Assembly (NCBI GenBank): GCA_021776825.1
Contig: JAJFFG010000037.1
Span: 2,437-66,436, forward strand
DNA length: 64,000 nucleotides
Direction: 5' to 3'
Origin: Planctomycetota bacterium
Lineage (GTDB): Bacteria; Planctomycetota; JAJSAM01; JAJVHW01
The notes below the pieces were generated by a model, which worked only from the letters and a program-made list of their open reading frames with translations, did no database searches and was not told the DNA's origin. The position numbers and the translations under genes were made by a program. Within the stretch, counting starts at the first letter, position 1, and each line of letters starts with the position of its first letter. Of this stretch, positions 6,327 to 49,840 are shown in pieces.

Positions 6327-7783
6327 CAGTCCGCCTTCTCGTCGGCCAGGATGCGGACGGTGCCGCCATCGGCGAGGTCGTCGGGCGGAGACAGTACGAC
6401 GTCCTCGCCGCCGCGCAGTTCGCTGTGGATCTCCACACGGCCGTCGGCGTCCTCGTCACCTCGTCCCACTGCGTGGAACCGGACCACCCTCTCCGTCACG
6501 ACGAACACCCCGTTCGCTCCGTCGCGCTGCGTGATGGCGCCGTCCGGCGCGAGGACGCGGTCGGCCCCGAGGGCGCGCTCGGCGGCATCCTCGTCGAGGA
6601 ACTCCACGCGCCCGCTCATCTCCGGCAGCACGTGCTCGTCGAGCTGATCGAACGTGATCTTTACCTGCACGGTCCCACGCGTGCGGTCCGCGGTCGGGAC
6701 GACTTGGCGCACGCGGCCCTGATAGGGCTCCGTGCGCGAGTCGAGCACGATGCGGCAGGGCAGGCCCTCGCTGACTCGGCCGATGTCGCGCTCGATGACG
6801 TCGACCTCCATCTCGAGCGACGCGAAGTCGGCCAGCGTGACGATGGCGCCACGTGTCATGCTCCCGGCGGCGTTCACCGGCGCGACCATCTCGCCGACCT
6901 CGGCCTCCTTGCGCAGCACGATGCCCGCGAACGGTGCGCGCACGCTGGCATCGCGGTACAGCGCCGCGGCGCGAGCGCGGCCGGCTTCGGCACCCTCGAC
7001 CATGCGTTGCGCCACGGTGTCGCGCGCCCGTATCACGGCCAATTCAGTCTCGTGCTGGACGACCTCGACACGCGCGGTCTCGGCGCGGGCGCGAGCCACG
7101 AACAGCAGTCGCTCTCGGACGTCGCGAGCAGATCGTGCTGCCTCCAGCGTGTCGCCCATCGAGACCCTCTCTCGCAGCAGACGCTCCTCGACGGTCACGA
7201 GCCGCTTGGCCTCCACGAGCTCCGTCTCGGCGGTGGCGACGGTCGCCTCGCTCTGCGAGCGACGGCGCCTCGCCGTCTCGACAGCGGCGGACGCCGCTTC
7301 GAACTGCTTCTCCAGAACGGTCAGTTCGGCACGTCGGGTCGCGACGGTTGCCTCGGCCTCCGTGACGGCGGCTTCCAGATCTTCCGCGCCAAGCGTGCCG
7401 AGCAACTGACCGGCCTCGACCGCGTCGCCGACGTCGACGAGCAACGACTCGAGGCGTCCCGATAGCCGACTGGAGATCGCCGCGCGACGCCGCGCGACCA
7501 CGTAGCCGGAGGCCGTGGTCCGAACCGCTCCCTGCGTGGCGGCAACGCGCACGATCGGCGCCGTGCGCACCGGGCGCGCGGCGAGGAGACGCTTCAGCGG
7601 ACCGATGGACAGAGCCCCGATCGCGATGACGATCACACCGAGCACGATCCAGCGCCCGATGCCGCGACGACGGCGGCCGGTGGGGCCGCGCTCGATGCGC
7701 AGGCGCTCCAGCCGCGGTCCTGTGCTCGTCGCGGCGTTCGCGTCGGTGTTCGTGTCCGCGCTCGTCTCGTCCTGATCGCTCAC
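6326..7783 (-). CDS. HlyD/MacA-family periplasmic adaptor (membrane fusion protein)
   Basis: N-terminal TM (WIVLGVIVIAIGALSI), long coiled-coil region rich in A/E/R, beta-barrel/lipoyl-like C-terminal part. Directly upstream of the ATPase + permeases. Confidence 0.75.
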   Translation of the reverse strand: MSDQDETSADTNTDANAATSTGPRLERLRIERGPTGRRRRGIGRWIVLGVIVIAIGALSIGPLKRLLAARPVRTAPIVRVAATQGAVRTTASGYVVARRRAAISSRLSGRLESLLVDVGDAVEAGQLLGTLGAEDLEAAVTEAEATVATRRAELTVLEKQFEAASAAVETARRRRSQSEATVATAETELVEAKRLVTVEERLLRERVSMGDTLEAARSARDVRERLLFVARARAETARVEVVQHETELAVIRARDTVAQRMVEGAEAGRARAAALYRDASVRAPFAGIVLRKEAEVGEMVAPVNAAGSMTRGAIVTLADFASLEMEVDVIERDIGRVSEGLPCRIVLDSRTEPYQGRVRQVVPTADRTRGTVQVKITFDQLDEHVLPEMSGRVEFLDEDAAERALGADRVLAPDGAITQRDGANGVFVVTERVVRFHAVGRGDEDADGRVEIHSELRGGEDVVLSPPDDLADGGTVRILADEKAD

Positions 7784-7899
7784 TGCCCGTCTCCCTGGTC
7801 CGACCCCGCAGGCTATCGCGCCGGCCCCCGGGGCAAGAACGCGCGAGGAGGAGGCATCACGTCCCGCAGACGGCGAGCGCGTGGTGGGAGCTACTCGGG

Positions 7900-8706
7900 C
7901 TATCCCGGCTGCGCGTGCTTGCCGCGGTACTCGATCGTCTGAATGAGCGGCAGGGCGACGAGGATCGTCAGGATCGCGACGCCGACGAACACTCCGATCG
8001 CGACGGCCGCCGATGCCGGGTCGTCGATGCGAGCGGCCTTCTGCAGCATGTCACGACCGATCGGTGACGACTCGGGCCACATCAGGGACCGCACGTAGTA
8101 GACGAGCGTGAGCTTCGCGATCGTCCCGGCGAAGAACGACATTGAGTTCTCGATCAGGACGAACACGACACCGACGACCAGAGTCTTGCGAATGCACACC
8201 GACGAGAGGCTGAACAGGCCCACGTACGCGGGGAACGCGAGCAGCGTCGCCGTCACCGCGGACTGCATGGGACCGGCGATCTCGATCTCGAGTGGGAGTC
8301 CGATGGCGAGCACCGAGATCGGCAGGAGCAGTGTGCCCACCGCCAGCGACGCCATCGTCCGTCCGATGTAGATCGCCCACCGGGACGCCGGCGCGGTGAA
8401 CCAGTAGGTCAGTGTCCCTTCGTCGCTCTCCGGCCACGGGAACGACGTCGAGAGGATCAGCGCCACGACCGGCACCGCGATGCCGAAGTGGTAGAACGCG
8501 AGGATCAGATAGAAAAAGCCCTCTTGGCGCTCGGGCGGCTGGCCGCGCGCAATCGAGATGGCGAGCACGCCGGGGAGCAACACGAGCAGCACCGGCCAGA
8601 GCAGCCGGAACCCCCGCAACGACCGGCGCAGCGTGAGCATCGCGACCTGGAAGACCACCTCGAACGTATCGAGCCGCCGCGGTCGGTCGAAGCGTGCCTC
8701 GCTCAT
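7900..8706 (-). CDS. ABC-2 family transporter permease
   Basis: Start MSEARFDRPRRLDTFEVV forms an ATGA overlap with the upstream ATPase stop. Six predicted TM helices. ABC-2 type. Confidence 0.7.
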   Translation of the reverse strand: MSEARFDRPRRLDTFEVVFQVAMLTLRRSLRGFRLLWPVLLVLLPGVLAISIARGQPPERQEGFFYLILAFYHFGIAVPVVALILSTSFPWPESDEGTLTYWFTAPASRWAIYIGRTMASLAVGTLLLPISVLAIGLPLEIEIAGPMQSAVTATLLAFPAYVGLFSLSSVCIRKTLVVGVVFVLIENSMSFFAGTIAKLTLVYYVRSLMWPESSPIGRDMLQKAARIDDPASAAVAIGVFVGVAILTILVALPLIQTIEYRGKHAQPG

Positions 8707-14325: not shown

Positions 14326-15057
14326 CTATCTCCACTTCACCTTGTCCTTGATGGGCGCAATGTTCTTCACCAGTTCCTTGCCCTTGGCGAGGAGGCCTTC
14401 CTTGCCGAGGAGGGCGGGGCCGTAGCGGACCTCGACGATGTAGCTGGAGATCCGCTTGCCGTCGGCCCAGCCGTACCACTCACGCCGCTCGCGGTTGCCG
14501 CTGTCCTTGTCGGTGCCGACGCAGGCGCTGTAGAGCTCCACGACCTTGCCGGCCCCACGCGCCTTCTTCGCCTCGACGCTCTCCTTCTCGATGACGTCCT
14601 TGGCCGAGCGCTTCCAGTCCTGGAAGAAGCCCACCAGGAGACCCTCGAGGTCGTCGCAGCGGACCGACTCGCCGTAGTTCTCGAACGGCAGCGAGAACGG
14701 CGTGCGCGTGTTGCCGTTCTGCTTGTAGTAGATGAACTTCTGGATGATGACGTCGATGTTCATGCCGGCCGCGGCCGAAGCCTCGTTCGACCACTTGACG
14801 CGGAGCATCAGGCCCTTCTCGTGCGACTTGCCCTTGGTGGACACGCTCCAGCGGGAGTCCTCGAGCTTGGCGGCGTCGATCCAGTAGCCGAGGTCGGGGA
14901 AAGCGTAGCCCGCCTTCTTCACCTCGTACTTGGCGCGGACCTTCTCGCGCGCCTTCTTGAGCTTGGCGGCGTCGTCCTTGGCTCCGGCGGTGGAGGCCGG
15001 GACCATGAACGCAGCGAGTGCGAGTCCGAGAACAGCGAGCGAGAGTCGAGACGTCAT
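14326..15057 (-). CDS. Secreted Lys-rich hypothetical protein
   Basis: Signal peptide MTSRLSLAVLGLALAAFMVPASTAGA|KDD. Mature part unusually Lys-rich for this genome. No domain recognised. Confidence 0.6.
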   Translation of the reverse strand: MTSRLSLAVLGLALAAFMVPASTAGAKDDAAKLKKAREKVRAKYEVKKAGYAFPDLGYWIDAAKLEDSRWSVSTKGKSHEKGLMLRVKWSNEASAAAGMNIDVIIQKFIYYKQNGNTRTPFSLPFENYGESVRCDDLEGLLVGFFQDWKRSAKDVIEKESVEAKKARGAGKVVELYSACVGTDKDSGNRERREWYGWADGKRISSYIVEVRYGPALLGKEGLLAKGKELVKNIAPIKDKVKWR

Positions 15058-15203
15058 CCAGATCTCCTTCAGGTCGTCCTCGAAGATACCGCCACAGGGA
15101 CGGCACGAGAAGACCGCCGGTTCCGTTTGCGCAATTGGCGCGCCACTCCCGTGAGTCAGGTCGCCGTCATTTCACGTCTCCCAGGGGGGACACGGGCGCT
15201 CTC

Positions 15204-16280
15204 TCACTTGGTCGAATCGGGGTAGCGCGAGCCTGTGGGGTGCTGAAACCCCCAGGCCGCGACCTCCCACTGGTTCGCGAACACGGCGCGCAGGGGGCCG
15301 TCGGCGCCGGTGCCGGCAACCGGGCGCCCGCTGCGAAGCCACCACGCGCGCTCGCCATCTCGTTCGCGCAGCTGCGGGCGCGCGTCGGGCTCCGCGACGA
15401 CCTCGAACGAGAGTGACTCCCCGTCGACGCGTCGGTCCCAGGCGAACGCGCCGCCGGCCGTCCGATCGAGCGTCACGACGAGTGGGACGCCGTCCACGTA
15501 CTCTTCGACCGGACCTGCGTCGAGCTCGACGTACGGGTACAGCCGGAACGCGCCGGGGAGGTCCACGCCCAGCCCGTACGAGATGACCGCGTTGCGTCGG
15601 GCGTAGTCGTCCGAGCGCACCGCCGGGTCCGTCGGGTTGGGCTTCGGGAGGACGAGCGTGCCCGGATGCTCCGCTTTCCACGCGCGCCAGGTCATGAGCT
15701 GCGTCGGGTAGCGCGGCAACGCCTTGCCGCGGAGCGGCCCGTCCATTGCCCATCCGGTCTGGTGGTGCCAGATCGAGTCGGTCTCGGTGTCGTAGAGCAC
15801 GAAGGCGCTGTGCCAGAGCCAGCCGCGGTGGCCGAAGCGCAGGGAGCGACCGTCGATCTCGCGGACGTGCACGACGCCCGTTCGGCAAAGCGGTCACCAG
15901 CAGGCGAGGAGGTCGATCCCCTCGATCGTGTGCTCGACGATCTCGTGGTGGTTCAGCAGGAGGACCGGATAGGCGACCTGGACGCGGCCGAGATCGAGGC
16001 CCATGACCAACTCCGCACCGGCGAACCCCTCAGCGGCGTCGGCCGTGACGAACTCCGGGTCGCGGATGACGCTGAAGCAGTCCCGGAACCCGCGCGACTT
16101 GTTGAGCTGGGCCCGGAAGTCCGCGGCGCTCGGGAGCTCGCCCTCGGCCGGGGGGCGGGCCGTGGCGGTCGGGAGATCCGAGACCTCGCTGCATCCGCCG
16201 AGCGCACCCAGCAGCAGCGCGACGACGCACGAGACCAGCAGCAGGAGGCGTCGGGCGCTCACGGGCCGCGAGGGTACCAT
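15204..16280 (-). CDS. DUF3179-family lipoprotein interrupted by a single in-frame TGA (15894-15896): candidate selenoprotein, or pseudogene/sequencing error
   Basis: ORFs 15894..16538 and 15204..15872 are in the same frame and separated only by the TGA. Context EGIDLLACW-TGA-PLCRTGVVHVREIDGRSLRFGHRGWLWHSAFVLYDTETDSIWHHQ matches the family's CPLC / FG.sG.LY.S.LVMYDRET.SLW core from memory, with the TGA at the first Cys. N-terminal lipoprotein signal MVPSRPVSARRLLLLVSCVVALLLGALGGCS from the ATG at 16280. Confidence 0.5.
15862..15880 (-). promoter_or_regulatory. Candidate SECIS-like hairpin 13 nt downstream of the in-frame UGA
   Basis: mRNA CGGGCGU-CGUGC-ACGUCCG: 7-bp stem with one G-U wobble, 5-nt loop containing GU. 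Spacing resembles a bacterial SECIS apical stem-loop. GC-rich hairpins are common by chance. Confidence 0.25.
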
Positions 16281-16290
16281 CCGCGACGTG

Positions 16291-17361
16291 ATGGCCAGGC
16301 TGCCTCGGAGCGTGCGTCGGTTCGTCGTCGGTCTCGTACTGACGCTCGGGCTTGTGCTGATGTTCGGGGCCTGCGGCGATCCAGCGACGACGACGGGGGC
16401 AGTCAACTTCCCCAACGCGATCCCGCTCGGCGACGCCGCCGCGTCGCTGCAGGCAGCCCAGGCGCCGCTCCGTCGCGCGTTCGACCGCCTGGAGGTTCGG
16501 GACTGGGAGGGCTGCCTCGAGCCCTTCGAGGAGGCCATCGCCCACCTCGAGCCGCACCCGCTGCTGGGTGGGCTGCGGGACCAGTGCCTCTACAACGTGG
16601 CCTGCGCGCAGAGTCGTCTCGGGCGTCCCGACGAGGCGCTCACGGCGTTCGCGGCGAGCGTCGAGCACGGGCTTCGCGATGTCGTCCAGGCCGTGTCCGA
16701 GACGCACGGTCTGAAGGTGTCCGGACTCTCGATCGCGCACATCCTGGTCGACGGCGACCTCGACGCGATCCGCGAGCTCTCCGGGTTCGACGCCGCGCTG
16801 GCGCCGCTCGTCGCCGGCGGTTCGAGCATCGTCCTCGACGGCGGGCTCTCGTTGGGCGGAGTTGCGGTGGTGCTGCTGGCTGCGGACCAGGAGGCGGACG
16901 CGGCGCGCGTTCGCTGGTGGAACGTGCTCGGGCGGATGTACTCGAACGTCATGCTCGTCGAGGGGCCGATCCGACCTCGCGCCGATCGCCGCCGCTGGGT
17001 GCTCGAAGACGGCGACGAACGCTTCGGGGTCGCCCGGCTGGACGCGGTCGCCGCAGAAGTCGGTGAGTCGCCCGAGGTGCGCGTCCATGTGTTCGCCGAT
17101 GGCGACGACGCCGCGCGCGTCGCGTTGACCTGGGCAGCCACGAACCCGGCGCGCGTAGCGGCGCTCGCTCTACACGCTGAGCGCCTGGATGTCGCGCATC
17201 ACGCGGATGCGCTGGCGGCGTTCGACGTCCCGCTCCGCATCGTGCTTGCCGGCGACACCGATGGTGCCGTGGCCCGTTTGCGCGATCTTGGAGTGGATGT
17301 TGTGGAACTGTCGGCGGACGAGTTCCCAGCTGGAGCGGAGCGAGTCCTACGCGCGCGCTGA
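16291..17361 (+). CDS. Hypothetical lipoprotein / secreted protein
   Basis: Start taken at MARLPRSVRRFVVGLVLTLGLVLMFGACGD (signal peptide with Cys), only 10 bp from the divergent DUF3179 start. No domain recognised. Confidence 0.5.
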   Translation: MARLPRSVRRFVVGLVLTLGLVLMFGACGDPATTTGAVNFPNAIPLGDAAASLQAAQAPLRRAFDRLEVRDWEGCLEPFEEAIAHLEPHPLLGGLRDQCLYNVACAQSRLGRPDEALTAFAASVEHGLRDVVQAVSETHGLKVSGLSIAHILVDGDLDAIRELSGFDAALAPLVAGGSSIVLDGGLSLGGVAVVLLAADQEADAARVRWWNVLGRMYSNVMLVEGPIRPRADRRRWVLEDGDERFGVARLDAVAAEVGESPEVRVHVFADGDDAARVALTWAATNPARVAALALHAERLDVAHHADALAAFDVPLRIVLAGDTDGAVARLRDLGVDVVELSADEFPAGAERVLRAR

Positions 17362-17802
17362 ACCCGCCTCGCCGCCGTACCCCTCGACCCACTCCTCGCC
17401 GTCCGCGAAGCGCTCGCGCTTCCACACCGGCAACGACGTCTTGATCTGCTCGATCACGAATCGGCACGCGTCGAAGGCGTCGCCGCGGTGGGGGGCCGAG
17501 ACGGCGATCGCCACCGACGCTTCGCCGATCGCGACCTCGCCGGTGCGGTGCCAGCACGCGACGCCACGAATGTCGAAGCGGCTCGTCGTCTCCGCGCCGA
17601 TCTCCCGCAGCTTGCGTAGAGCCATCGGGCCGTACGCCTCGTACCAGAGCGTCTCGACCGGACGCTCGACCTGGTTCGCGTCGTTCGACGACTCGCGCGA
17701 GACGCCGAGGAACGTCACGATCGCTCCCGCGCCCGAGTCCGCTATGAACGCGGCGAGCGCCTGAACGTCGAGGGGCTCCGCGGTGACTCCAAATGGCTCC
17801 AC
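17347..17802 (-). CDS. moaE: Molybdopterin synthase catalytic subunit MoaE
   Basis: GTG start 1 codon after the MoaD stop, with GGAGGA 9 nt upstream. Translation VEPFGVTAEPLDVQALAAF..GAGAIVTFLGVSRE...WHRTGEVAIGEASVAIAVSAPHRGDAFDACRFVIEQIK matches the MoaE fold. Confidence 0.8.
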   Translation of the reverse strand: MEPFGVTAEPLDVQALAAFIADSGAGAIVTFLGVSRESSNDANQVERPVETLWYEAYGPMALRKLREIGAETTSRFDIRGVACWHRTGEVAIGEASVAIAVSAPHRGDAFDACRFVIEQIKTSLPVWKRERFADGEEWVEGYGGEAGSARA

Positions 17803-17806
17803 GGCT

Positions 17807-18055
17807 CTATCCTCCCGACACCGGCGGGAGCACGGCCATGGTGTCGCCGTTGCTGAGCGATCGGCTCGGCGGAGCGAACTCCTCGTCGACGGCTGCGCGG
17901 GACGCGCCGAGCACGGGGCCGAGTGCCGGATGCGCCACCCGCAGGTGCGCGAAGGCGTCGCCGACCGTCGCGTCATCGGGGAGCTCGACCCGGATCGAGC
18001 CCGCGCCGGCGGCCTCGCGGGCCGCGGCGAACAGCAGCACCTCGATCGTGATCAT
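17807..18055 (-). CDS. moaD: Molybdopterin synthase sulfur-carrier subunit MoaD (C-terminal Gly-Gly)
   Basis: 82 aa, MITIEVLLFAAAREAAGAGSIRVELPDDATVGD...NGDTMAVLPPVSGG. ATGA overlap with the upstream gene. Confidence 0.8.
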   Translation of the reverse strand: MITIEVLLFAAAREAAGAGSIRVELPDDATVGDAFAHLRVAHPALGPVLGASRAAVDEEFAPPSRSLSNGDTMAVLPPVSGG

Positions 18056-19071
18056 CCGGTCGATGCCGTGGCGTCGCGAAACAGTCCGTCGCGCAGGTCC
18101 GGTGAGCGCCGTGCCTCGATCACGTAGCGACGCATCCGATCGGGATTGAGTGGTCGCGGGCCGTCGCCCGTGGGCGTCGTCCACGCGGCCGCAGCCTGCG
18201 CTCCGACGACATCGTCCGCGCCGGCACTCAGCAGGAGCGCCGCCAGTTTGTGCCCGATGACGTGCGCATCGATCGTCACATGCGAGATGGTGTGGCCCAG
18301 CGCCAACCGCGTGAGTGCGCACGCCAGCGTGTCCTCGGTCCCTGCTGGTCCGTGGAGTGGGCTCGCGCCCTCGGTCCGGTCGGGGAGCACGACCGCCGAC
18401 AGGAATCCGCCGCCGTTCTCGTCGAGCTCACGGATCGCATCGAGCCGCCCGAGGAACGCTTCGTCAACGCCACCCTTGCTGTAGCCGACCGGCGCCACGG
18501 TCTTCATCCGCGCGTCGTGCGCGTGTTCGTGGACGCGCAGCGCCGCACCGTCGGTCCCGTCGCCGGGCGCCCAGTCCAGCGTGTCCAGGCCGACCCGCGC
18601 CAGTTCGGTGACGACGTCGCCGAGACTCGCGCCGTCCGTGATCGAGAGCTCCTCGACCTGACTCGGCGAGAACGCGCGCAGCGGCACGTCGGGCCGCGCC
18701 GACTTGACCGAGCGGATCATCTCGAGGGCGAGCCCCAGCGGCAGGTCCGATGGCAGCGCGCCGACCAGCTGTGTCTCCGTGGCGGGCACGCCCGCGAGCC
18801 GATCGATGGGATGCGAGACGAACATCGCGCTCTCGGCGACGAACGGGATGCTCGGGGCGCGCACGCGCAGCGTCCACGGGTGCGTCACGACGACGCCGGC
18901 CGCCTGTTCCCTGCGCGCGTCGGCGAGTGCCGCCGCCGCGAGCGGATGGCCGCACGTGCGGACGCGCTCGAGGTCGCTCCGCGCGATGCGTGCGCCGCGG
19001 CGCGCAGCGATCCAGAGGTCGCCCAGACCGGCGGCGTCGACGATGCGCTTCAACAGGCTCTCGCGGCTCAA
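18052..19071 (-). CDS. CofH/MqnC/MqnE-family paralog lacking the radical-SAM CxxxCxxC motif
   Basis: C-terminal half aligns by eye with the adjacent radical-SAM protein (EDTLACALTRLALGHTISHVTIDAHVIGHKLAALLLSAGADDVVG vs EYLRTVALSRLYLQNVANMQSSWVTMGPKIGQMALWFGCNDMGS). The N-terminal region has a single Cys. Confidence 0.5.
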   Translation of the reverse strand: MSRESLLKRIVDAAGLGDLWIAARRGARIARSDLERVRTCGHPLAAAALADARREQAAGVVVTHPWTLRVRAPSIPFVAESAMFVSHPIDRLAGVPATETQLVGALPSDLPLGLALEMIRSVKSARPDVPLRAFSPSQVEELSITDGASLGDVVTELARVGLDTLDWAPGDGTDGAALRVHEHAHDARMKTVAPVGYSKGGVDEAFLGRLDAIRELDENGGGFLSAVVLPDRTEGASPLHGPAGTEDTLACALTRLALGHTISHVTIDAHVIGHKLAALLLSAGADDVVGAQAAAAWTTPTGDGPRPLNPDRMRRYVIEARRSPDLRDGLFRDATASTG

Positions 19072-19092
19072 GTCGTCCTCCGGCTGAACGTT

Positions 19093-20301
19093 CTACTCAC
19101 GACCGGAGACGGTCGCAGGCACCTGATCGAAGGCCTCGGCGGGCAGCGCCAGGTTGCGTGGGTTCTCGCCGCAGACCTCGCGCATGCGCTCGGGCGTGTC
19201 GAGGAACCGGGCGTCCACCGGCTCGTAGAAGAAGTTGCGCTGCTGCGCGCGGAACCCGGCGGCCTCGATGACGCTGCAGATCTCGGGCGAGAGCATGCGG
19301 TAGGCGACACCGGCCGACGAGACGACGTTCTCCTCGATCATCGTCGAGCCCATGTCGTTGCAGCCGAACCAGAGCGCCATCTGGCCGATCTTCGGTCCCA
19401 TCGTGACCCACGAGCTCTGCATGTTGGCGACGTTCTGCAGGTAGAGCCGCGAGAGCGCCACCGTGCGCAGGTACTCGGCGCCGCCCTTCGGCTCGTCGGC
19501 CTTCAGTACGTGCGTCGGCTGGAACAGCCACGAGATGTAGGCTGTGAAGCCGGCGTCCGTCGACCCGGCGTTCTCGTGCGCCAGGTCCTGCGTCTGCCGC
19601 AGGAACTCGAGGTGCTGGATGCGATCGATCGGCCGCTCGCGGTGACCGAGCATCATCGTCGCCGTGGTGCGCAGCCCCAGCGCGTGCGCCTCGCGGTGCA
19701 CCTCGAGCCACTGGTCGGTCGTGCACTTCAGCGGCGAGATCGCGTCGCGCGCGTAGTCGGTCAGGACCTCCGCGCCGCCGCCCGGGATCGAGTCGAGACC
19801 CGCCTCGTGCAGTCGCGCGATCGTGTCGCGGACGGAGATCCCCGAGACCTGCGCGATCTTGTGGATCTCGGGCGACGAGAGCGCGTGCACGTGGATGTCG
19901 AACGACTTGCAGTACGCGATCAGGTCGGCGTACCACTCGACGTCCCACTCCGGGTGCGTGCCGCCCTGCATGAGGATCTGCTCGCCGCCGAGCGCCTTCG
20001 TCTCGAGGATCTTCTTCCGCAGTGCCGCGCGGGAGAGGACATAGCCGTTCTTGGACCCGGGCGCGGCGTAGAAACTGCAGAAGTTGCAGTAGGAGTCGCA
20101 CACGTTCGAGTAGTTGACGTTGCGATCGACGATGTACGTCACGACCCGTTCGGGGTGCAGACGCATCCGCACCTCGTGCGCCGCGGCGCCGAGCGAGAGC
20201 AGGTCCGCCTCGTCGTGGAGGTAGAGACCCTCGTCGGGCGTCAGGCGACCACCGTCGATGGCCTTCGCCAGCAGGTCCTCGGTGCGTGCAGGATCACTCA
20301 T
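19093..20301 (-). CDS. Radical SAM menaquinone (futalosine pathway) enzyme, MqnC/MqnE family
   Basis: CDSYCNFC radical-SAM motif and the CofH/MqnC-like C-terminal domain (GGTHPEWDVEWY, MIEENVVSSAG). MqnC versus MqnE cannot be resolved by eye. Confidence 0.8.
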   Translation of the reverse strand: MSDPARTEDLLAKAIDGGRLTPDEGLYLHDEADLLSLGAAAHEVRMRLHPERVVTYIVDRNVNYSNVCDSYCNFCSFYAAPGSKNGYVLSRAALRKKILETKALGGEQILMQGGTHPEWDVEWYADLIAYCKSFDIHVHALSSPEIHKIAQVSGISVRDTIARLHEAGLDSIPGGGAEVLTDYARDAISPLKCTTDQWLEVHREAHALGLRTTATMMLGHRERPIDRIQHLEFLRQTQDLAHENAGSTDAGFTAYISWLFQPTHVLKADEPKGGAEYLRTVALSRLYLQNVANMQSSWVTMGPKIGQMALWFGCNDMGSTMIEENVVSSAGVAYRMLSPEICSVIEAAGFRAQQRNFFYEPVDARFLDTPERMREVCGENPRNLALPAEAFDQVPATVSGRE

Positions 20302-20332
20302 CGTGGGTCGAGGAGGATAGCCGTGACGGCCC

Positions 20333-20698
20333 TCAGAGCCTCCGGCTCTCCGGCCGCAGCCACCAACTCGCGAGCGTGATGACGAGCACGATCACCGGCG
20401 CCGGGAGCTCCGCCGTGTCGCCGATGGCCAGATGCGAGAAGAAGGCGCCGACGACGTCGATCACGAATCCGGCGTAGGCCCACTCCTTGAGACGCCGGAA
20501 CCCGGGTGCGAGCACCGCGGCGAGCCCGAGCAGTTTCGCGATGCCCAGGATCGTGAGCAGATACTCGGGATAGCCCAACTTCGCGAATGCGACTCGCACG
20601 TCGTCGCCGCGCCAGAGGTCCATCACTCCGCAGTAGCCCATGGCGACCACGAGCAACGCCGTCGCGATCCAGTACCCGATCGTCTTCCGATCCATCAC
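20333..20698 (-). CDS. DoxX-family membrane protein
   Basis: 121 aa, 4 TM helices, MDRKTIGYWIATALLVVAMGYCGVMDL...GIAKLLGLAAVLAPGF typical of DoxX. Confidence 0.65.
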   Translation of the reverse strand: MMDRKTIGYWIATALLVVAMGYCGVMDLWRGDDVRVAFAKLGYPEYLLTILGIAKLLGLAAVLAPGFRRLKEWAYAGFVIDVVGAFFSHLAIGDTAELPAPVIVLVITLASWWLRPESRRL

Positions 20699-48490: not shown

Positions 48491-49840
48491 TTGCCCGGAC
48501 GTCGGATCTTCGGCTCCGGAACCCAACCCCGCGAGGGAAACGTGTCGCGCCTGATTCAACGCTTCGTCGCACCGGCCTTGGTGGTTGCCGCCGCCATCGG
48601 CGTGGCGTCCACCCTGGCCGTGCCCGGCGACGGCGAGCCTGCGCCGGAGCCGACGCCCGAGGAGATCGCACGCATTGACGATCTGGTGCGGCGGTTCCAT
48701 CACGGGCAGCGCCTGTTCGGCAGCGGGAAGGACGAGCAGGCCGAGCAGGTCTTCCGCGATCTGATCGTGGATGCTCCCGAGACGCCCGAGATCTACCACG
48801 CCCTTGGGCTCCTGCTGGTGTTCCGCAAGCGACCCGACGAGGCGCTCGACGCGTTGCGAGAGGCCGTGCGCCTGGGGCCCGAGAACCCCGTGATCCTGCG
48901 GGATACCGGGCAGATTCTCCTCGATCGAGGAGCGGCGCGCGAGGCCGCACCGCTCTTCGCCCGAGCCCGCAAGGTCTGGCCACGCGAGGTCGAGGTCGCC
49001 GTCGGCCACGGCACGGCGCTCCGCGCTCTCGGGCGACTGGAGGAGGCCACCGCGGCCCTTCGCGCCGCACACGAGATTGATCCGGGCTCAGTCGACGCTC
49101 GCGTCGGACTCGCGGGCTGCATCCTGCTCGCCGAGCCGGCGGCCGCGCTCGACCTCGTCTCTGGTCTCCAGGTGGCCTGGCCAGACGTCGCACTCGTCCA
49201 CGGGCTGGCACTGGCGCGACTCGACCGCCATGACGAGGCACGGCCGCATCTCGTTCGCGCGGCGGACGGCGCCGCTCCGGGCGTGGCCGGGAGGGCGTAC
49301 CTGCAGGAAGCAGCCGAGGCGCTGGTCCGCACGGGACACGCCGGCGACGCAGCCCTGGTGGCCACGCGCTGGGTGGCGACGTTCGATCCGCCGTCAGCGC
49401 GCGCCTCGTTCTGTCTGGCCATGGCGCTCGCGGCCGACGGCAAGAGCGATCAGGCCCTCGCGGCGCTCGACGCTGTGCCCGCAGACGGCGCCGGCCCTGA
49501 GAGCGTCCGACGCCACGTCGCGCTCTTCCGCGCGGCGGTGATCCTGCGAGCGGGTGGAGTCGACGCTGCTCGTGCGGCGCTGACCGTCCTCGCTGACGCC
49601 GATACCGAGTCGTTCGAGCGAGCGGCAGCGCGTCGCGTCCTCGACCGCACGAAGGCCGACTGGGCCGCCGCGATCTCGACGACGCCTGGTCGCGCCAACG
49701 ACGTCGCGTGGATCGAGTCCCTGCGAGCCACGCTCGCGCTCGACACGGAGTCGGCTGCGGCACACGCCGCCCGCGCCCACGAGCTCAGCTCCCCGCCAGG
49801 GGAGTACCCGGGCCTGCTCGTCATGCCTCGCTCGGACTGA
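48491..49840 (+). CDS. Secreted TPR-repeat protein
   Basis: N-terminal hydrophobic segment RLIQRFVAPALVVAAAIGVASTLAVPG, multiple TPR-like helical pairs (EIYHALGLLLVFRKRPDEALDALREAVRL...). Confidence 0.6.
   Translation: MPGRRIFGSGTQPREGNVSRLIQRFVAPALVVAAAIGVASTLAVPGDGEPAPEPTPEEIARIDDLVRRFHHGQRLFGSGKDEQAEQVFRDLIVDAPETPEIYHALGLLLVFRKRPDEALDALREAVRLGPENPVILRDTGQILLDRGAAREAAPLFARARKVWPREVEVAVGHGTALRALGRLEEATAALRAAHEIDPGSVDARVGLAGCILLAEPAAALDLVSGLQVAWPDVALVHGLALARLDRHDEARPHLVRAADGAAPGVAGRAYLQEAAEALVRTGHAGDAALVATRWVATFDPPSARASFCLAMALAADGKSDQALAALDAVPADGAGPESVRRHVALFRAAVILRAGGVDAARAALTVLADADTESFERAAARRVLDRTKADWAAAISTTPGRANDVAWIESLRATLALDTESAAAHAARAHELSSPPGEYPGLLVMPRSD

Follow-up and report, generated by a model that had tools for sequence, protein, structure and literature searches.

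The question raised by this 64,000-nucleotide stretch of Planctomycetota DNA (contig JAJFFG010000037.1, positions 2,437 to 66,436; the whole stretch is called the window in the following) is how a single in-frame stop codon on its minus strand is to be read. Positions 15204-16280 of the minus strand hold one reading frame of the DUF3179 family (PF11376), which is interrupted by TGA at 15894-15896. Is this a broken gene, a pair of genes, or a single gene in which the stop is translated? We conclude that the region is very probably one intact gene for an exported DUF3179 protein, with the UGA at 15894-15896 decoded as selenocysteine (Sec).

Two open reading frames (ORFs), 15894..16538 and 15204..15872, lie in the same frame, and the 21 nt from the TGA to the GTG at 15872, where the downstream ORF is called, contain no other stop. 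The minus strand reads GCC TGC TGG TGA CCG CTT TGC CGA ACG GGC GTC GTG CAC GTC CGC at this place, i.e., A-C-W-stop-P-L-C-R-T-G-V-V-H-V-R. When Cys is put for the stop, residues 67-331 give a single PF11376 match across the TGA (E = 4.6e-42, 144.9 bits at a cutoff of 27), covering profile positions 2-273 of 292; no NCBIfam model matches the 358-aa product. The full-length predicted selenoprotein gene (15204..16280, minus strand) opens with ATG 16280, closes with the terminal TGA at 15204-15206 and comprises 358 codons, the UGA being codon 129. Its start is backed by homologues that begin with M-[VL]-P-S-P-A-V-R.

When 1.84 billion cluster representatives were searched with a family profile, 14,192 members of DUF3179 came up, 183 of which were aligned. 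In this alignment, H-E-I-V-E-H and W-U-P-L-C of the window protein fall into the columns of the family box H-E-(I/V)-V-N-D and of (Y/W/F)-C-P-L-C. The U-P-L-C motif (15885..15896, minus strand; (W/Y/F)-C-P-L-C in the family) thus opens with the in-frame UGA (15894..15896, minus strand), which codon comparison and family alignment predict to encode Sec. The initial annotation had proposed the essentials of this picture from the window alone, and they are borne out. Sequence and ORF coordinates agree with its two minus-strand ORFs parted by the TGA, and its family consensus is essentially right. Its placement of the TGA at the first Cys of C-P-L-C is corroborated by the one PF11376 match that crosses the codon and by a column that is Cys in 155 of the 157 family sequences covering it. 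The candidate Sec codon, too, has held up, as homologues carry Cys or TGA at exactly this column.

This last result rests on a protein search that returned 40 homologues, and on DNA loci from one-genome-per-species and metagenome collections in which the codon at the motif column was read. The best relatives of the window gene are found in Planctomycetota metagenome-assembled genomes (MAGs), with 47-60% identity. Thirteen of the aligned homologues are full-length with (C/V)-W-C-(P/A)-L-C (in one case with a truncated N-terminus), and the full-length Cys homologues of 340-367 aa align with the window product end to end. Another 21 proteins of 215-236 aa (P0014-P0035 except the full-length P0022) begin at (V)-V-H-x-R, a few codons past the motif, and so does the window's own database fragment P0001 (222 aa). 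Judged by their sequences, these short DUF3179 proteins look like gene-caller truncations at an in-frame TGA. At the DNA level, the column is TGA in the window and in nine further loci of its close clade, in the context C-W-U-P-L-C-R-T-G-V-V-H (L001-L004, L006, L007, L018-L020); the taxonomically labelled loci of this clade are Planctomycetota MAGs. TGC or TGT stands in 11 loci, comprising the close-clade Cys forms L005, L017 and L021 as well as L008-L012, L016, L022 and L023, and the distant relatives with Cys codons belong to Acidimicrobiia, Pseudomonadota and Chloroflexota. TAA or TAG occurs at the column in none of the 24 loci read; every stop there is TGA, and in every TGA locus examined the gene callers split the gene into two ORFs at this codon.

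A second, distant subclade carries TGA at the column as F-U-V-V-C-N-(T/S)-G. It consists of four loci on three distinct contigs: L013 (Calditrichia), L014 and L015 (both Gemmatimonadota), and L024, apparently the same contig as L014. Membership in PF11376 was confirmed for L013 and L014. Identity of the window protein to TGA-bearing homologues amounts to 42-65% in the 100 residues before the TGA and to 49-62% after it, and because identity is alike on both sides, we take both halves to be under selection. In a rough neighbour-joining tree the Cys forms are nested among the truncated, putatively Sec-containing forms, which hints that Sec may be ancestral in the Planctomycetota-type clade and was later replaced by Cys. 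As side observations on the distant subclade, the positions are 10217 in L013, 8848 in L014 and 8306 in L015; a Chloroflexota relative, L016, has Cys at the column; and the DUF3179 gene of L014 is divergent from a pyridine nucleotide-disulphide oxidoreductase gene (6856-8343).

DUF3179 is already listed among the predicted prokaryotic selenoprotein families, as "DUF3179 domain-containing protein, pfam11376, UxxC/T", in two reviews (PMC9312934, 2022; PMC13188914, 2026, Table 1, with one Sec). Both credit Zhang & Gladyshev 2007 (PMC1976440), where the DUF3179 selenoprotein was originally described from the symbionts of a marine worm, and the representative sequences given are MBW1804167.1 and MDJ0986319.1. 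The window gene shares with these catalogued selenoproteins the Pfam domain, the single Sec, its place at the first position of U-x-x-C, a hairpin after the UGA, and the existence of Cys homologues; it differs from them in belonging to a high-GC Planctomycetota-type clade. As every testable feature of the family is found in it, we regard the window gene as a new member of a known, functionally uncharacterised selenoprotein family.

Bacterial Sec insertion depends on a selenocysteine insertion sequence (SECIS) in the mRNA, and the initial annotation had pointed to a hairpin CGGGCGU-CGUGC-ACGUCCG located 13 nt downstream of the UGA. This hairpin is present as described. The predicted element (15862..15880, minus strand) has its 5' arm at 15880-15874, the loop CGUGC at 15873-15869 and its 3' arm at 15868-15862; the stem counts 7 bp with one G.U pair, the loop lies 20 nt from the UGA, and the free energy is -9.8 kcal/mol. 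G and U occupy loop positions 2-3, and the GTG that is used as a false start falls within the loop. The consensus model for bacterial SECIS elements asks for an upper stem of 4-16 bp, a UGA-loop distance of 16-37 nt and a minimum free energy of at most -7.5 kcal/mol (PMC13188914). The comparison with this model that the initial annotation had called for comes out in its favour: the window hairpin passes, and so do 12 of 13 TGA loci on all four published criteria, L013 alone failing at -6.9 kcal/mol.

It is the comparison with homologues, and not the window sequence by itself, that lends the hairpin its significance. A hairpin of 7-9 bp was found in all 13 TGA loci, starting 13-14 nt past the UGA, with the loop GUC, GUG, GUU, GUA or CGUGC, a UGA-loop spacing of 20-22 nt, free energies from -6.9 to -15.2 kcal/mol and G-U within the first three loop bases. 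RNAalifold, applied to the 10 close TGA sequences, gives a 7-pair stem, and none of the ten has lost any of its pairs. The stem shows one double compensatory change from C-G to A-U, in L001 and L018, which corresponds to a synonymous Gly codon change and a Val-to-Ser exchange, and a single G.U/G-C alternation among the close TGA sequences. The close Cys genes L005, L017 and L021 encode T-G-V-V-H-E-R at this place and their stem cannot form; more distant Cys genes have no such stem either. Altogether the hairpin occurs in 13/13 TGA loci versus 1/8 Cys loci (Fisher p = 7e-5, for sequences that are related and thus not independent). In the distant subclade it has a sequence of its own at the same spacing, e.g., GGGGAUCA-GUA-UGGUCCCC. 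With the bacterial SECIS (model in PMC13188914, Fig. 2A; prototype E. coli fdhF) these loci share a stem-loop within the coding sequence 3' of the UGA, an upper stem of 7-9 bp and an apical loop of 3-5 nt with G then U in the first two positions. They differ from it in that neither a bulged U nor a lower stem is established in these hairpins, and SelB would be their presumed ligand; a resemblance to the fdhF element in sequence would not be expected.

Several observations weigh against decoding as Sec. Measured against dinucleotide shuffles, the 45 nt after the window UGA show no gain in folding stability (z = +1.49; of 200 shuffles, 195 were equally stable or more so). At the 69% GC of the window, loose SECIS criteria are satisfied after 14.5% of its 1288 TGA trinucleotides, and a hairpin about as strict as the real one follows 1.2% of them. 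The covariation is limited to one compensatory pair in two related sequences, and since the stem sits in the conserved coding stretch T-G-V-V-H-x-R, the conservation of the hairpin is partly due to the protein. A search of the whole window against Rfam at the gathering threshold returned no match of any kind, SECIS included, where Rfam may hold no general bacterial SECIS model; a permissive search of 15700-16000 gave chance-level matches only (neisseria_FSE, E = 0.61, opposite strand). PMC13188914 lists DUF3179 in its Table 1 at a point well after the heading "Experimentally verified". Finally, selA, selB, selD and tRNA-Sec were found neither in the 64-kb window nor in about 450 kb of related loci, an absence that is uninformative rather than negative.

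The search for this machinery comprised tblastn with E. coli SelA, SelB and SelD probes, which gave no match in the window and 29 loci, and ARAGORN, which reported no tRNA in the window. Its one call in the related loci, a 95-nt tRNA-Gly(ccc) at 765-859 of L004, was considered as a possible tRNA-Sec-like gene. This candidate was rejected; it has no Rfam match to tRNA or tRNA-Sec, lies in GC-rich surroundings and is probably a false positive. Complete gene sets for Sec insertion are known in several Planctomycetes (PMC4807772), so the Sec trait exists in the phylum of the closest relatives, and we infer that SelA, SelB, SelC and SelD are present in this genome as well.

What else could place a TGA here? 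A recent pseudogene, in which TGC or TGT turned into TGA by nonsense mutation, takes just one A in place of C or T. It fits the NCBI-derived calls, which give two ORFs (P0001, 222 aa), and past the terminal TGA there is a relic of the C-terminal tail seen in homologues, such that some 3' decay is conceivable. However, no fewer than 12 other distinct contigs, from three phyla or more, have TGA at this very column, and none has TAA or TAG; both halves are equally conserved; and the position-specific hairpin goes with TGA and is lacking in loci that encode Cys. These comparative data already make a pseudogene very unlikely. That the stop stems from an error of sequencing or assembly at 15894, the true codon being TGC or TGT, is a thought suggested by the origin of the window, a metagenome-derived contig. 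A Logan contig from a separate assembly of SRR15505515 (L025) shows the same TGA and the same two-ORF call, with 2 mismatches in 11,921 nt and none in the 120 nt that surround the TGA. The underlying reads may be the same, but homologues from unrelated samples carry TGA as well, and we consider the chance of such an error practically negligible.

The gene callers, for their part, predict in every TGA locus just what two genuine genes would look like, here a 128-aa N-terminal fragment and a 222-aa protein that starts at GTG 15872. Against such a pair, the seven codons from TGA to GTG (P-L-C-R-T-G-V) are conserved, including the second motif Cys, the GTG lies inside the hairpin loop, and the Cys homologues are single polypeptides. 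In the AlphaFold model of the Cys homologue P0002, which stands in for the window protein, the split would moreover cut one beta domain, because the motif lies between two adjacent strands of it. Two separate genes are therefore an extremely improbable arrangement. Read-through of another kind, i.e., insertion of Trp or Cys by a near-cognate or suppressor tRNA, or a reassignment of TGA, draws on the fact that the Sec machinery is not demonstrated for this genome. Yet the 43 window ORFs with coding-like composition end in 24 TGA, 17 TAG and 2 TAA, and with TGA as the commonest normal stop we take the genetic code to be standard and TGA not to be reassigned. As the residue aligned with the UGA is Cys, the standard partner of Sec, rather than Trp or Gly, and the hairpin fits the SelB-type model, recoding without Sec appears highly improbable.

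If the UGA is decoded as Sec, the established bacterial pathway would apply. When the ribosome reaches the UGA, the hairpin at 15862-15880 would be bound by SelB together with GTP and Sec-tRNA(Sec), and SelB would deliver Sec in competition with release factor 2. The product would carry U-P-L-C where the family has C-P-L-C, and its selenol would most likely be the reactive nucleophile in a redox centre that forms a selenylsulfide outside the cytoplasm, or possibly belong to a metal- or chalcogen-binding centre there. Sec insertion as such, along with export, lipidation and the chemistry of the site, is what we infer from these data. A lipoprotein signal peptide is predicted at the N-terminus (16188..16280, minus strand; MVPSRPVSARRLLLLVSCVVALLLGALGG followed by C). 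By inspection only, this stretch combines a basic N-region with a hydrophobic core, and its LGGC (LLGALGG before the C) is lipobox-like, with an atypical Gly at -2; the lipoboxes of homologues are clearer, with L-A-G-C, L-A-A-C or V-V-A-C at this site. The protein is probably exported and lipid-anchored.

The family alignment and the P0002 model provide some guidance on function. In the model, the motif lies between the adjacent strands 107-114 and 119-124 of one beta domain, and this N-terminal domain is predicted to have a Rieske-like fold. The first motif position is its most conserved residue. Conservation is looser at the second motif Cys (C 149, T 4, A 2, S 1, V 1, i.e., T, S or A in about 5%), which is in agreement with the UxxC/T motif of the reviews. 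Other near-invariant polar residues are H97, E98, N101, D102, R125, D149, T152, S154 and W156 in P0002 numbering. Further His residues that occur in the window's clade show no conservation in the family at large. No entry related by sequence was found in the PDB, and the remaining 170 or so residues have no solved relative.

The beta-fold of the N-terminal domain is shared with Rieske [2Fe-2S] and NirD-type proteins (3gce_A, 2qpz_A, 3c0d_A). Unlike Rieske proteins, however, DUF3179 has no C-x-H...C-x-x-H ligands (the window protein has H-E-x-x-E-H ... U-x-x-C) and no Pfam Rieske match, and most of its homologues have no twin-arginine export motif. Its conserved residues H, E, N, D, C, (C), R, D, T, S and W do not resemble a cluster site. 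As the ligand set and the Pfam match are absent, the window protein is not classed as a Rieske protein, and we read the conserved site as a catalytic or reactive one on a Rieske-derived scaffold rather than as a Rieske cluster.

Motifs of the U-x-x-C kind indicate redox function according to the general rule of the reviews (PMC9312934, PMC13188914). DUF3179 shares with the CxxC/CxxS/CxxT thiol oxidoreductases and their UxxC/UxxS/UxxT forms the near-invariant first position, and the replacement of that residue by Sec. Its fold, in contrast to theirs, is not thioredoxin-like, and in the P0002 model the motif stands between two beta strands and not before a helix. A position between beta strands is more typical of metal-binding knuckles. 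On balance we prefer redox chemistry of the U-x-x-C pair, by somewhat better than an even chance; binding of a metal is a less likely, still serious, candidate. Going further is speculative. DUF3179 might, although we think it rather unlikely, represent an undescribed class of extracytoplasmic enzymes or metal-handling proteins on a Rieske-derived beta domain. In its active or metal site, the near-invariant Cys/Sec that opens the C-P-L-C knuckle would then be joined by H-E-x-x-N-D, R125, D149 and T-x-S-x-W (P0002 numbering), and selenium would serve as nucleophile or ligand in the Planctomycetota-type clade. On domain architecture, two side observations may be added. P0041, the top match of the family profile, is a multi-repeat protein of 1587 aa with six separate DUF3179-matching stretches, and several other profile matches of 500-750 aa have their DUF3179 domain at the C-terminus.

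DUF3179 had been catalogued as a selenoprotein family before, and our knowledge of Sec decoding is unchanged. What the analysis adds is a new range for this family, namely the high-GC Planctomycetota-type clade and the subclade of Gemmatimonadota and Calditrichia. For annotation, merging the two ORFs with Sec at residue 129 restores the 358-aa protein. Some two dozen 5'-truncated DUF3179 proteins in the databases go back to the same split, and about 26 of the 183 aligned family sequences begin just after the C-P-L-C-x-T-G columns. Truncation at the Sec codon thus seems to affect public protein collections systematically, and annotation may fail to rescue the gene because no NCBIfam model matches it. 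The use of Sec in place of the first Cys of C-P-L-C would mark this position as a functionally critical residue of DUF3179, and it may serve as a starting point for the function of a family of about 14,000 representatives.

The neighbourhood of the gene was compared by Pfam annotation in the window, L013 and L014, where no consistent functional partner was found. Directly downstream in the window lies a gene for a 243-aa secreted, Lys-rich protein without a Pfam match (14326..15057, minus strand). According to tblastn, L001-L007 and L019 have it at the same place, immediately after the DUF3179 gene, with 31-53% identity and beside Sec and Cys forms alike; by synteny, a functional link to DUF3179 may be suspected. 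On the other side, a divergent gene (16312-17361, plus strand) encodes a 349-aa lipoprotein-like protein with a weak tetratricopeptide repeat (TPR) match, and it holds the same position in L001-L007 and L019, again with both Sec and Cys forms. The start codons of this gene and of the DUF3179 gene, which diverge from each other, are only 31 bp apart. Further upstream, a block of genes (17347-20391, minus strand) encodes a radical S-adenosylmethionine (SAM) protein with CofH_C, a 339-aa protein, ThiS/MoaD and MoaE, and this block lies upstream in all Planctomycetota-type loci. The 339-aa protein belongs to no Pfam family and shows 47-65% identity across these loci. Transporters of the ATP-binding cassette (ABC) type are encoded further downstream of the DUF3179 gene. 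No function for DUF3179 suggests itself from these neighbours.

Other Sec codons were considered for the window and rejected. A scan for in-frame TGAs with coding signal on both sides gave only 15894-15896. At 49838-49840, TGA serves as a normal stop codon; the genes on its two sides are, going by their translations, TPR-like and Ser/Thr-kinase-like. The terminal TGA of the DUF3179 gene itself (15204-15206) does not qualify as a second Sec codon, since Cys is found at this place in none of the homologues and the inverted repeat that follows has a loop without G. Past this terminal TGA the frame continues with E-S-A-R-V-P-P-G-R-R, which resembles the tail S-A-R-E-S-V-P-x-R-G-R that ends many of the TGA-form homologues. 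An inverted repeat, GTCCC-N(4-8)-GGGAC, underlies the tail region. In L001, L002 and L004 it is located just before the stop, and its copy in the window (15176-15191) lies past it. Either a nonsense change has cost the window gene its tail, or what is conserved here is a hairpin in RNA or DNA and not the peptide.

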